The position numbers were made by a program, and so were the translations under genes. From Mobula birostris (lineage: Eukaryota): a stretch of 64,000 bases of DNA. Below are positions 17,917 through 22,800 of the stretch, piece after piece. The stretch covers positions 1-64,000 of the forward strand of contig NW_027274690.1 of the NCBI RefSeq assembly GCF_030028105.1, given 5' to 3'. The notes beneath the pieces were generated by a model, which saw nothing but the letters and a program-made list of their open reading frames with translations, was not told where the DNA came from and ran no database searches. Position 1 is the stretch's first letter, and every line of letters begins with the position of its first letter.

Positions 17917-19851
17917 TCAGGGGATCCACACAGCCGGACGCCTCTGCCCACCCCTGGGTACAGTGCTCTTCCCCCTCCCCCTCCCCCTGCAGCCCCCAAC
18001 CCCCACCCCCTTCCTGCCCCTCTCCCCCCGGGGCAGCAGCCGGGGGATGCGGCTGGGCCGGGGGGTGGGAGGGGTCTGCATTAGGCCGGCCCGGCGGGCC
18101 AAGGCAAGGAGGAGCAGGAGGAAGCGAGCGAGCAGCGATGGAGGAGAGGGGATTCGGGCGACCCCACCGATGCCCTCCCTGTGTCCCCGGCTCCGGCAGG
18201 GGAGGGGCAGCCGGCTGCCCCCTGGCACCCTCCCAGCCTTGGGGAAGAGGCTGAAGAGGCTGCTCTCGCGCACCAGGCCGCAGCGCTGGGCGGTGCGGAA
18301 CACAGGGGCCGGCAGCCTCAGCAGCAGGCGCAGCCAGAGCCGTAGACCGTGCCGAGGCACAGGGGGCCGAGGTGGCGGAGGGAGGAGGGCGAGAGCGAGG
18401 AGGAGGGGGAGCAGAAGGAGTGAGGGGGAGGCGGAGGAAGCGGCCCACGTTAAGGTGCAGGCTGAGAGCAGCAGGCCTACAGGGAGCAGGAGGCGAGAGT
18501 TCAGCCGGAGGGAGCTGGGGACCAGCTGGAGGGAGAGGAGGAGCAGAGGGACGAGGAGGAGAAGAAGGGAGAGGGTGAGGGAGGAGGATGAGGTGGCCCA
18601 AGCCAGGGAAGAGGATGTGAGCAAGCCGAGAGGCAGGAGGGAATATTTCTGGGGTAGATGACCTGGGAAAAACTGTAGGGCGAGGAGGAGGAGGCAGAAG
18701 AGAGCAAGGGCGAGCGAATAGGAGGAAGAGGCCCAGACCAAGGAACTGGCCGAGAGCAGCGTGAGGGTTAAGCCTCGGAGAAGGAGGCCATACTTCTGGG
18801 GAAAGAGGCCGGGGACAAGCTGGAGGGTGAGGAGGAGGAGGAGGAGGGCAAGTAAGATGAAGAGGAGTGGTGTGAGTGCGAGGGAGGCGGAGGCCCAGAC
18901 TAGGCCGCAGGACGTGAACAACAGCAGGAAAGCAGGAAGCCGTAGGCCGAAGCCCAGGAGGCCCAGGCTTCCCAGGACCCCGAGCAGGAGGCCAGGCCCC
19001 AGCCAGGAACCCAGGCTGAGTAGGAGGCGCAAGGAGCCCGCAATGGCCAGGAGAGAGCCCAGGGCGGGTCGGTCCAGGGCCGGAGAGAGGAGGAGCAGCA
19101 GGGCAGCGAGGGAGGGCAGCAGGAGGAGGAGGGGTGGCCCAGCCCAGAGAAGGGCCAGCGGAGGGCCGAGGAGGAGGAGGGAGAGACGCTGGAGGGGCCG
19201 GGGGGGTGGGGAGGGGAGCAGAGAGGGGTCCTCAAGATCTGGGAGGACGAGGCCTTCTTCATATGGGTCGGAGGGAGGGGATAAGGAGGGAGGGGTTGTG
19301 GAGGGAGGGGAAGTGGAGGGGGATGGGGAGGATTGGAGCTCAAAGTAGGGCAGGGTGTCTGGAGAACCATCCCCCCTCCCTTGGACATTCTCTTCCGACC
19401 TTCCCGAGGGTGTCACCCCCAAATAGACCCTCTCCCTTCCCTCTTCCTCCTCTTCTGGGACATCCTCCTTCTCCCAAACAGCATCCCTTTCCTCTTGACC
19501 CTCAACCACCTCCCCTGGGTCACCCTCCTTCTCCCAGACATCCACCCCTCCCTCCAGTCCTTCGTCCAACCCACCCGGGACCCCCTCCCTGCTCTCCCCA
19601 CCCTTTGGCCCCTGGCTGGACATCACCAGCACCCTCTCCACTCCCTCAAGTGGGGCCCCCTGGCAGAGAGAAAGGTGTTGGTCGCTGGGCTGGGTTGGAA
19701 TCAAGTCCTGATGCCTCGGCCCTGTTGCACGATCTGAGGGGAGCTGGACAGCGCTCCCCGTGCCTGTTCTCCACTCCTGCCCCACCACCTCGTCCTCCCG
19801 TAGCAGAGAACAGCTTTCCAGGGAGTCTGGCCGTTGGGAAGTGTTCGACTC
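17917..19851 (-). CDS. TAOK2: TAOK2 alpha-type terminal exon: acidic linker, multi-pass hydrophobic region, basic tail
   Basis: Acceptor ctctcctctcttcccaccacag is in frame with the 623-aa ORF. Contains [20 protein letters not shown]...LFSLFPK and [11 protein letters not shown]. Confidence 0.85.
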   Translation of the reverse strand, partial: ESNTSQRPDSLESCSLLREDEVVGQEWRTGTGSAVQLPSDRATGPRHQDLIPTQPSDQHLSLCQGAPLEGVERVLVMSSQGPKGGESREGVPGGLDEGLEGGVDVWEKEGDPGEVVEGQEERDAVWEKEDVPEEEEEGRERVYLGVTPSGRSEENVQGRGDGSPDTLPYFELQSSPSPSTSPPSTTPPSLSPPSDPYEEGLVLPDLEDPSLLPSPPPRPLQRLSLLLLGPPLALLWAGPPLLLLLPSLAALLLLLSPALDRPALGSLLAIAGSLRLLLSLGSWLGPGLLLGVLGSLGLLGFGLRLPAFLLLFTSCGLVWASASLALTPLLFILLALLLLLLTLQLVPGLFPQKYGLLLRGLTLTLLSASSLVWASSSYSLALALFCLLLLALQFFPGHLPQKYSLLPLGLLTSSSLAWATSSSSLTLSLLLLLVPLLLLSLQLVPSSLRLNSRLLLPVGLLLSACTLTWAASSASPSLLLLPLLLALALLPPPPRPPVPRHGLRLWLRLLLRLPAPVFRTAQRCGLVRESSLFSLFPKAGRVPGGSRLPLPCRSRGHREGIGGVARIPSPPSLLARFLLLLLALARRAGLMQTPPTPRPSRIPRLLPRGERGRKGVGVGGCRGRGRGKSTVPRGGQRRPAVWIP

Positions 19852-22800
19852 CTGTGGTGGGAAGAGAGGAGAGGGAGGTAGGAGAGAGAGGAGGGGTGAG
19901 GTTAGAAGGGATGGGGAGTGAGTTACATGATAAAGGGAGAAGCTGACAGTGTGTTCACTCCAGGTACCAGTTTACCCCAATACTCCCACCCCGTCCCTCA
20001 CCTCTTCACCACCCTGAAACTTAACAGCCACAGGTACTCTTCATCCATTCTCTCACTGTTGATTGACAATCCCCTTCACTCCCTTCTGTCTGACCGACAA
20101 TCCCCTCCCCTCCGAACCTCTCCCTCCCCTCTGTCTGACCAACAATCCCCTCCCCTCTGAACCTCTCCCTTCCTTCTGTCCGACCAACAATTCCCTCCCC
20201 TCTGAACCTCTCCCTCCCCTCTGTCCAACCAACAATTCCCTCCCCTCCGAACCTCTCCCTCCCTTCTGTCCAACCAACAATTCCCTCCCCTCCGAACCTC
20301 TCCCTCCCTTCTGTCCAACCAACAATTCCCTCCCCTCCGAACCTCTCCCTCCCCTGTCTGACCAACAATCCCCTCCCCTCCAAACCTCTCCCTTCCTTCT
20401 GTCCGACCAACAATCCCCTCCCCTCCGAACCTCTCCCTCCCCTCTGTCCAACCAACAATTCCCTCCCCTCCGAACCTCTCCCTCCCTTCTGTCCGACCAA
20501 CAATTCCCTCCCCTCCGAACCTCTCCCTCCCCTGTCTGACCAACAATCCCCTCCCCTCCAAACCTCTCCCTTCCTTCTGTCCGACCAACAATCCCCTCCC
20601 CTCCGAACCTCTCCCTCCCCTCTGTCCGACCAACAATCCCCTCCCCTCCGAACCTCTCCCTCCCCTCTCTCCAACCAACAATTCCCTCCCCTCCGAACCT
20701 CTCCCTCCCCTGTCTGACCAACAATTCCCTCCCCTCTGTCTGACCAACAATCCCCTCCCCTCTGAACCTCTCCCTTCCTTCTGTCCGACCAACAATCCCC
20801 TCCGCTCCGAACCGCTCCCTCCCCTCTGTCCGACCAACAATTCCCCCCCCTCCAAACCTCTCCCTTCCTTCTGTCCGACCAACAATTCCCTCCCCTCCGA
20901 ACCTCCCCCTCCCCTCTGTCCGACCAACAATTCCCTCCCTTCTGTCCAACAATTCCCTCCCCTCCGAACCGCTCCCTCCCCTCTGTCCGACCAACAATCC
21001 CCTCCCCTCCGAACCTCTCCCTCCCCTCTGTCCGACCAACAATTCCCTCCCCTCCGAACCGCTCCCTCCCCTCTGTCCGACCAACAATCTCCTCCCCTCT
21101 GAAGCTCTCCCTTCTCTCCTTCCTAGGAAGGGGGTGAGAGAGTGAAGGGAGAGAGGGGAGAGAGTGAAGGGAGAGAGGAGAGAGAGAAGGGGGAGAGAGA
21201 ATGCGGAGGTGGGAGAGAGAGAAATGGTGAGGGGGAAGACAGTGAATGGAGAGGGGGCGAGAGAGTGAAGGGGAGAGGAGAGAGGGGACGGAGACGCTGG
21301 AGGTGAAATGAGGAGTGAGGCTCACTTACCGTCTGGCACTGGGTGATGACACTGTCATTGTGCGCTGTGTTCTCATCTGCCTGCAGTCCCACATCTGAGC
21401 TTTGGTCCCAGCCTTGGGTCAGACTGCTGAGGCTGCTCTCAACATCGGGGCTGTCCCTCATGCTGGCCATCGTGTCTGACTGTCCCGCGCAGGGGTCCGG
21501 CTCCTGGGGGAGGAGCACACAAGTAAGCAACATGCTGGGGAGGTGCAGAGGACACACACACATCCTCAACCTCCCACCCTTCTGGCTTCTTCACCTCTCT
21601 CTCCTCTTCTTCTGCCTCACATATCCCCTTCCCTCATCTTTACAAAACCCCTGCCCCACGCACCAATCTTCCTCCCTCCCTCTCTACTTGCAACACCCTC
21701 CCTCCCAGCAGATGCTCCCTGCCCCCTTATGGCCAGTTCCCAGCCCCACCTCGTCCTCCTCATCTTCCTCCTCCTCCTCCTCCTCGGGGGTGTCGGGCAC
21801 GTCCTGGAACAGCAGCTTCTTCAGCCTCCGGTGTTCGGGAGTCTCCATCTCCCTCACTGCAGCCTTGGTTCTCTGCAGCAGCTCCTCGATCACAGAGAGG
21901 GGCCGCTCCCTCTCTACGAAGATGTGCTGCGGGAGAGACACTGGGACGTGAGACTCACACGTAAACCCCCACCCTCACACCTTCACGACCTGCCTGTGGG
22001 AAGAGGTTCGAGGGGCAGACAGAGGCGAGAGGGCGACAGAACGGAGGTGGAAGAGAAGGGGGGGAGGAGGAGAAGGAAAGGACGGTGGAGGGAGAAGGTG
22101 GTGGAGGAGGAAACAGTAAGGGGGGAGATGGTGGAGGAGAAGGTGGAGACTGTTGAGAATGGGGCTGGGGGAATTGAAGACGAGGCGGAGGGGGCGAGGG
22201 CGAGGCGGAGGGGGCGAGGGCGAGGCGGAGGGGTTCAGATGGGAAGCAGCAGTGAGCGGTGGGGAATTGAGGAGAGAGGGGAGGGAGGTGGAGGGGCTCT
22301 GAGGAGTCGAGGCTCCCTACCTTGAGCAGCTGTTCTGAGCTGGGACGATCCTGAGGGAGCTTCTGCAAGCAGGAATCGACAAAACTCCGGAACGGGGCTG
22401 ACCTGCAACCGGAGCGGAGTGCGAACCCGTCAACGGGAAACCAGGTGCGGCCCACCCAGACCAGGGCAGGGCGGCATTTCAGGAGTGACTGAGGGGGGTG
22501 GGGAGAGCGAGGGGGGAGCGCGAGGGGACGGGGAGAGCGAGGGGGAGTGGGGGAGAGCGAGGGGGAGAGTGGGGTGGGACTGGAGAGGGGGCAGGGAGAG
22601 CGAGGGGACGGGGAGGGGAAGGGGGTGGGGGAGAGCGAGGGGACGGGGAGGGGAAGGCGGTGGGGGAGAGCGAGGGGAGGGGGATAGCGAGGGGGGTGGG
22701 GGAGAATAGGAGAGGGCGGAGGAAGGGAGAGGGGAGGGATGGGAAGGGGGAGACGGGGACGCAGAGCACAAGGCAGTGTGTAAGAGATGGGGGTGCGGCC

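Follow-up and report, generated by a model that had tools for sequence, protein, structure and literature searches.

A likely giant manta ray TAOK2 gene joins its Ser-rich exon directly to an alpha-type terminal exon

The coiled coil of TAO kinases has been retained from invertebrate TAO kinases to mammals. According to the cited passages, human TAOK2-alpha reaches the endoplasmic reticulum (ER) by membrane helices and an amphipathic region, its tail binds microtubules and an SxIP motif binds EB1; residues 941-1235 alone suffice and over-tether the ER, kinase activity opposes tethering by a mechanism stated there to be unresolved, and the alpha tail is found only in TAOK2 (PMC8699727). At synapses, TAOK2 beta takes part in signalling through p38 and RhoA (PMC8044823, PMC7589832). 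The coiled coils of TAOK1, a plasma-membrane remodelling kinase, are predicted to form a triple helix, contact the kinase and bind phosphoinositides, and autophosphorylation at T440/T443 acts as an off switch (bioRxiv 10.1101/2022.07.06.499025). A disease variant has been located in coiled coil 1. Human TAOK2 is intolerant of loss and of missense change, with a probability of loss-of-function intolerance (pLI) of 1 (PMC13479925). Here we compare with these systems a TAO kinase gene of Mobula birostris, contained in the first 64,000 nucleotides (nt) of contig NW_027274690.1 (assembly GCF_030028105.1), the window.

The gene runs on the minus strand from 40524 to 17917 and has 12 coding exons, with GT-AG introns throughout (Table 1). 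Its open frame of 1,034 codons (coding sequence, 3,105 nt) gives a product of 1,034 amino acids (aa), and the 12-exon translation is identical to RefSeq model XP_072106219.1 (P0001; Mobula birostris). The gene is likely TAOK2 of the giant manta ray. Judged from its sequence, it is probably the ray TAOK2 orthologue, spliced from exon 11 to the terminal exon and remodelled into a likely active kinase that would serve as a predicted ER-membrane, alpha-only microtubule tether without the ancestral coiled coil. Like vertebrate TAOK2-alpha, an STE20/GCK-VIII MAP3K, it has an N-terminal TAO kinase, a Ser-rich exon, an acidic linker, a multipass region, post-membrane basic/hydrophobic helices, an SxIP motif and a basic disordered tail. 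It differs from TAOK2-alpha in that four coiled-coil exons are gone and a fifth appears decayed, beta exons were not found, and the N-terminus, the kinase C-terminal extension and the length of the membrane region are altered. TAOK1 and TAOK3 have the kinase domain in common with it; unlike ray TAOK2, they carry three coiled coils and no membrane tail, and T440/T443 of TAOK1 sit in the HFATIRTASL segment, among the exons that ray TAOK2 lost.

The join was examined in transcripts and gene models. The original prediction, made from the letters of the window, had placed the donor at 21329 and a phase-compatible acceptor at 19852, about 1.5 kb apart; this was right, both ends being phase 0 and the intron 1,478 nt long. 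A run search returned 24 runs, 20 of them with all or part of the terminal exon and none recorded as RNA. Four runs from three studies were examined over 21140-23400, namely X3 and X5 (organism A), X13 (organism B) and X17 (organism C), and their RNA nature was deduced from their spliced contigs. Each contained one contig that covered exons 8-11 only, with the two introns (394 and 743 nt) spliced out at CT..AC, and that ran off the alignment at 21329-21332. The 30 overhanging letters in X3, X5 and X13 are those of window positions 19821-19850, the start of the terminal exon; in X17 the overhang agrees with this start at 25 of 28 positions (by eye). At 3,555 nt, the X5 contig is 450 nt longer than the coding sequence. 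Looking for transcripts across the 21330-19851 junction had been suggested with the original prediction, and all four runs make the direct join there. The direct splice from exon 11 to the terminal exon is real, in three organisms.

An identical join is present in gene models from two further assemblies, those of Mobula hypostoma (P0002) and Hypanus sabinus (P0128/P0006). Where X13 differs, it has the amino acids found in P0002, and the pair probably does not represent independent cases. By contrast, X17 is distinct from all three named ray proteins, and at least four lineages thus carry the join. The new kinase-plus-ER-anchor architecture that had been proposed was thereby borne out, spliced in three organisms and modelled in RefSeq for three ray species, with the ER anchoring presumed by analogy to human TAOK2. 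Ray TAOK2 is a real, lineage-specific variant of TAOK2-alpha. Among the RefSeq isoforms, Hypanus P0006 omits exon 10, and Mobula P0003/P0004 begin within the kinase domain.

The original prediction had also considered an assembly collapse, in which the minisatellite conceals intact coiled-coil exons that transcripts use. A 1-kb minisatellite does fill the intron, its span is known from the assembly, and the corresponding span measures 22.5 kb in ray TAOK1 and 34.3 kb in ray TAOK3. The minisatellite and the GA-rich tract, said to make up nearly all of the intron, are indeed its components and amount to 81% of it, less than claimed. The window's contig is unplaced and short (86.9 kb), stopping 17.9 kb past the stop codon. 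In addition, 8 of the 129 fetched proteins longer than 560 aa are without the QHQKQL motif, seven of them ray models and one the TAOK2 model of the shark Hemiscyllium ocellatum (P0018), in which the HFATIRTASL exon is followed by the last coiled-coil exon and three exons are absent. P0018 lies on a 430-kb contig, and its gap is likely an assembly gap, the alternative being an independent partial loss. Such gaps therefore occur in shark gene models, and the worry about collapse was fair. Nevertheless, the join is made directly in spliced contigs from three organisms, and the models from two other assemblies concur. A gap would also not explain why the exons flanking the junction have degenerated in rays while those of P0018 are pristine. 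We regard the collapse as extremely improbable, and for the main transcript the claim fell away.

The missing exons were searched for in the contig and in the genome. Neither tblastn with four TAOK proteins nor seven per-exon profiles found a conserved coiled-coil or beta exon in the whole 86,894-nt contig (best profile E, 0.18), in agreement, for conserved exons, with the original failure to find them. As a positive control, the seven profiles recovered exons of TAOK1 and TAOK3, with E values no higher than 1.5e-9. In genome searches, which score best candidates only, three queries, namely two coiled-coil stretches of shark TAOK2 and a beta-type stretch, each matched C29 (TAOK1) and C36 (TAOK3) only, so that the search of this genome that had been proposed for the TAOK2 coiled coil gave matches only at the two paralogues. 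The first two beta exons were matched at TAOK1 and TAOK3 only, and none at TAOK2, in genome and contig searches. Thus, ray TAOK2 does not show the TAO family trait of "two to three coiled coils in C-terminal half" (cited from PMC7589832).

The exons that follow the Ser-rich exon in ray TAOK1 measure 135, 237, 129, 204 and 240 nt and are all phase 0; any run of them can therefore drop in frame. The four exons missing from TAOK2 correspond to 237 aa in Heterodontus. Protein sequences show the alpha tail following on from the last coiled-coil exon in sharks and mammals, and alpha variants are described as intronic relative to beta at c.2232+ (PMC13479925). The first ~85 codons of the ray terminal exon are probably a decayed, Pro/Gly-rich remnant of this fifth and last coiled-coil exon. 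Aligned in register from the acceptor, the putative relic has 9 of 30 identities, a score matched by 1 of 20,000 shuffles against shark TAOK2 and by 3 of 20,000 against the ray's own TAOK1 (next-best exon, 417 and 170 of 20,000, respectively). The corresponding values for the Hypanus relic are 6 and 15 of 20,000, and the whole-exon alignment outscores all 5,000 shuffles in both rays. The relic holds 16-18 Pro and Gly residues versus one in the shark exon. Thus, the claim that the entire coiled-coil region is lost held for four exons, and the fifth probably persists in decayed form.

The upstream flank of the junction is altered as well. Exon 11 beats 5,000 of 5,000 shuffles against the shark Ser-rich exon and is strongly diverged from it (58 versus 69 aa). 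Mobula and Hypanus are identical at 40 of 56 residues in exon 11 and at 66 of 85 in the relic. In X17, seven of the nine listed exon-11 changes alter the residue versus one of four in the kinase exons, although these numbers are small. Between the kinase and the membrane tail lie ~280 residues (acidic, Ser-rich and relic), and the kinase is not joined directly to the tail as had been thought. The alpha linkers of shark TAOK2 (P0132, P0018) hold tandem ~23-aa repeats of their own; this exon seems prone to internal duplication.

Assignment of the gene to TAOK2 was based on genome searches, a kinase tree and the tail. Two kinase exons used as queries each matched three genome loci: C689, which is the window's contig, C29 and C36. 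By identity and tree position C29 is TAOK1 and C36 is TAOK3, both intact. The alpha tail query matched the window only and is single copy in the genome; the tail aligns to that of shark TAOK2, and the intron positions in the kinase are those of the TAOK paralogues. The tree comprised 26 kinase domains, 24 from database proteins and two from the ray's own paralogues, most of the 120 matches listed being omitted as near-copies. It splits TAOK1 and TAOK3 from TAOK2 and the rays at 98/93. Shark TAOK2 proteins (Heterodontus P0132, Rhincodon P0026) are the nearest neighbours of the rays in it and resemble them in linker motifs, post-membrane helices, SxIP context and WIP C-terminus. Shark TAOK2 departs from the ray protein in its complete coiled coil, its shorter membrane span and its occurrence in both alpha and beta forms.

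With three TAOK kinase loci, one alpha tail and a kinase on the TAOK2 side of the tree, the proposal of a divergent paralogue was not upheld. It would require that a canonical coiled-coil TAOK2 exists in rays and is missing from the assembly, the window's gene being a derived duplicate. Kinase, coil, beta and alpha-tail queries revealed no fourth TAOK locus in the genome, although these searches score best candidates only. The ray TAOK2 entries among the best 120 of 2,795 kinase matches are the coil-less ones only. A very long kinase branch, as often seen after duplication, would suit a duplicate, and the small contigs that carry shark TAOK2 models (130 kb to 4 Mb) suggest that the region assembles badly. 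However, the gene stands head to head with a zinc-finger gene that is possibly MAZ, a name not confirmed by a named match. MAZ and TAOK2 both lie in human 16p11.2 (PMC3484866). We consider such a duplicate very unlikely and retain the assignment to the TAOK2 orthologue.

The kinase domain is kept in its core and altered at its end. Its best matches in the PDB are TAO2 (1u5q, E 3e-170) and TAO3. K53, HRD147, DFG165 and S177 of the ray protein correspond to K57, D151, D169 and S181 (positions as given in PMC13479925, PMC8636641 and bioRxiv 10.1101/2022.07.06.499025). The substrate-side core is 78-81% identical to other TAOKs, and ray TAOK2 is likely an active kinase. At 21 of the 236 columns that are invariant in 24 other TAOKs the ray kinase differs; elsewhere, such changes number 0-2 in each of 23 TAOK1/2 sequences and 16 in a single TAOK3. 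Eight of the 21 fall in one nine-residue C-terminal stretch (human positions 304-312). We take the MEK-binding region, just after the kinase, to overlap this diverged part. A protein search with exon 10, weak in itself, returned P0001 only, among 14 candidates, and a literature search returned no paper on the TAO2 kinase C-terminal extension.

These changed sites, together with the fast evolution of exon 11 and the relic, could also mark a gene decaying to a pseudogene, its losses reflecting relaxed function in a protein that does little. This is highly improbable, as the 1,034-codon frame is open in three species and the kinase core is identical at 257/257 positions between the two Mobula and at 249/257 between Mobula and Hypanus. 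Moreover, the catalytic and activation-loop residues, SxIP and the C-terminus are kept, and transcripts were present in all four runs examined.

The membrane tail is conserved among rays and enlarged. Like the relic and the altered kinase end, this enlargement had escaped the original prediction. The span between two conserved motifs that flank the membrane region is 307-309 aa in rays versus 128-182 aa in three sharks. The region is ~135 aa longer than in vertebrate TAOK2-alpha by virtue of four tandem ~50-aa units (38-54 aa), which show ~71-80% DNA identity in their aligned parts and were not seen in shark tails. Each of the six unit pairs scored above all 500 codon shuffles of the DNA and above at least 1,996 of the 2,000 residue shuffles. 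A crude scan gave eight hydrophobic 19-aa segments, and a low-confidence model places helices over 610-924; the multipass hydrophobic region and the amphipathic region of the tether thus appear to be present in the model. Mobula and Hypanus are identical at 260 of 275 residues in the hydrophobic region, at 44 of 45 in the helices that follow and at 93 of 104 in the tail. All three rays have SRIP at 990-993, and SxIP is also kept in sharks. The tail after SxIP is basic (13 Arg/Lys and one acidic residue in 45 aa). An ESM Atlas search with the tail gave no usable match.

Since the ray protein keeps all tether parts of human TAOK2-alpha, a tether role is the best inference by analogy, and ER location, microtubule and EB1 binding and kinase-regulated release would be expected as in human TAOK2. 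Alternatively, the protein may have changed jobs, its membrane units shaping or organising the ER and its kinase having new substrates, so that the human tether model fits poorly. The four tandem units, which are conserved in Mobula and Hypanus but missing from shark tails, and the altered kinase C-terminal extension could be taken in that sense. Retention of all known tether elements and of the substrate-side core speaks for the original role, and membrane shaping would be conjectural; a change of jobs therefore seems to us unlikely.

We propose the following history for the tether. Four phase-0 exons would have been deleted or silenced with the frame kept, and the beta exons lost as well. 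Loss was not an option for the fifth coiled-coil exon, which forms the front of the alpha terminal exon; it would have been retained there and decayed in place to a Pro/Gly-rich linker. Constraint on exon 11 and on the kinase C-terminal extension would have been relaxed, which would fit a former role of both in contacting or assisting the coiled coil. In a later step, tandem duplication would have enlarged the membrane region. In the resulting protein, the membrane helices would anchor it in the ER, and the SxIP motif and basic tail would bind EB proteins and the microtubule lattice. Phosphorylation by the kinase, which would sit on a flexible linker of ~280 residues, may weaken the tether in the way described for human TAOK2-alpha. 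The tasks of the coiled coil and of the beta isoform would then fall to TAOK1 and TAOK3, and beta-specific roles would be absent from ray TAOK2.

Beside the short, unplaced contig and the Hemiscyllium gap, several points weigh against this account. The exon profiles also failed on the ray's own diverged exon 11 and on the relic; blind to exon 11, they exclude conserved exons only, and deletion is indistinguishable from silencing followed by decay. Assembled contigs lose rare splice forms, so a minor isoform could escape detection. In the AlphaFold model of the shark protein, residues 439-712 form confident helices; the ray model shows none over 313-609, an absence that is weak since this model is poor, with a mean predicted local distance difference test (pLDDT) score of 45.6. 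The register of the relic was picked after the likeness had been seen by eye, and unanchored tests of it gave weak results: a profile E of 0.18, and local alignments whose scores were reached by 10 to 625 of 2,000 shuffles. The rays adjoin shark TAOK2 at only 83/76, and their kinase branch is ~0.9 changes per column long versus a median of 0.013 for end branches. Finally, the named ray TAOK2 proteins come from Mobula birostris, M. hypostoma and Hypanus sabinus, and none from a skate, sawfish or electric ray.

The range of the architecture was addressed by further protein searches. A search with the tail yielded nine proteins from 4,728 candidates but not the shark tails already known, so it carries little weight on range. 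In an exhaustive search of 50% clusters, the best 150 of 797,813 matches were listed, and among the matches listed were three further proteins with an alpha-like tail, two with a coiled coil and one, P0156, without. P0156 joins two rays at 90/82 in a 175-column tree that has no starred branch and a long-branch warning. It has two derived residues in common with the rays at otherwise invariant sites, and of seven exons the relic exon aligns to it best in register (20 of 5,000 shuffles); its membrane span is short (149). The P0156 model is poor, with a spurious N-terminus and without exons 1-3, 10 and 11, and is a lead only; an ESM Atlas search with it gave generic kinases only. From its sequence alone, P0156 hints that the coil loss may be older than the stingray-manta split. 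More broadly, all rays might have rebuilt TAOK2 in two steps, with early loss of coil and beta exons followed, in stingrays and mantas, by fourfold duplication of a membrane hairpin, yielding a kinase that, without coiled-coil autoregulation, shapes the ER and tethers it to microtubules. We put this forward tentatively and think it rather unlikely; if true, the coiled coil and all beta functions would be dispensable in large-brained vertebrates.

The ray proteins are already in RefSeq as 'TAO2-like' or 'uncharacterized'. We found no paper on TAOK2 in cartilaginous fish or elasmobranchs or on a coil-less ray TAOK2 in a search outside which subscription journals fell, and a term search of the main text of a 2026 manta genome preprint (10.64898/2026.10.27.761883) did not find 'TAO' there. 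Rays offer a viable, conserved natural deletion, which asks whether the coil is needed for kinase-regulated tether release. The kinase residues changed alongside the coil loss point to a surface that likely served the coil. The gene also illustrates clearly how a domain can be lost through removal of phase-0 exons, with a probable relic trapped in a shared terminal exon.

Table 1. Features of the TAOK2 gene, in window positions
Feature	Position	Strand	Evidence
Coding exon 1 (start codon, shortened N-terminus, Gly-rich loop)	40405..40524	-	exon model matching P0001
Coding exon 2 (VAIK lysine K53 at 39770-39768)	39735..39806	-	
Coding exon 3 (helix C)	39289..39390	-	
Coding exon 4	38689..38734	-	
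Coding exon 5 (through HR of HRD)	38037..38133	-	
Coding exon 6 (D of HRD, DFG, activation-loop S177)	35864..35977	-	
Coding exon 7	34927..35018	-	spliced contigs join exon 7 to exon 8
Coding exon 8	23146..23239	-	spliced contigs
Coding exon 9 (kinase core end)	22321..22402	-	spliced contigs
Coding exon 10 (kinase C-terminal extension, acidic run; altered stretch 21848-21822)	21750..21926	-	spliced contigs
Coding exon 11 (Ser-rich, 174 nt, 58 aa; donor GT at 21329)	21330..21503	-	spliced contigs
Phase-0 GT-AG intron, 1,478 nt, site of four missing ancestral exons	19852..21329	-	
45-bp minisatellite, 23 copies, within the exon 11/terminal exon intron	20079..21112	.	
GA-rich tract, same intron	21129..21294		
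Terminal alpha-type exon, coding part, 644 aa and stop; acceptor AG ends 19852	17917..19851	-	spliced contigs
Putative decayed relic of last ancestral coiled-coil exon, aa 391-475	19597..19851	-	shuffle tests
Acidic linker, aa 476-610, motifs common to shark TAOK2-alpha	19192..19596	-	alignment
Hydrophobic, predicted multipass membrane region, aa 611-885	18367..19191	-	hydrophobicity scan and AlphaFold model
Four tandem hydrophobic units, 38-54 aa each	18364..18927	-	shuffle tests
Conserved basic/hydrophobic helices, aa 890-924, counterpart of amphipathic region	18250..18354	-	alignment and model
SxIP motif, aa 990-993, then basic tail	18043..18054	-	alignment
Likely polyadenylation signal AATAAA	17544..17549	-	sequence

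Tandem repeats also occur elsewhere in and around the gene. The 11.7-kb intron 7 consists largely of a 49-bp minisatellite at 25306-34885 (9.6 kb, 196 copies), with an apparent higher-order duplication of ~4 kb. A 95-bp tandem array of 27 copies (98% match) spans 41813-44355, upstream of coding exon 1. The neighbouring zinc-finger gene is a multi-exon C2H2 gene at 51188-54330 on the plus strand that extends past the window (L017:698-1036); a PDB search with it returned no MAZ entry. One 52-bp satellite recurs in and around this gene at 50045-50540, 54332-54781 and 61142-64000. An intron of the same gene holds, at 55000-60700 on the minus strand, a large non-long-terminal-repeat (non-LTR) retrotransposon-like element whose gag-like, endonuclease and reverse transcriptase frames are interrupted by stops.

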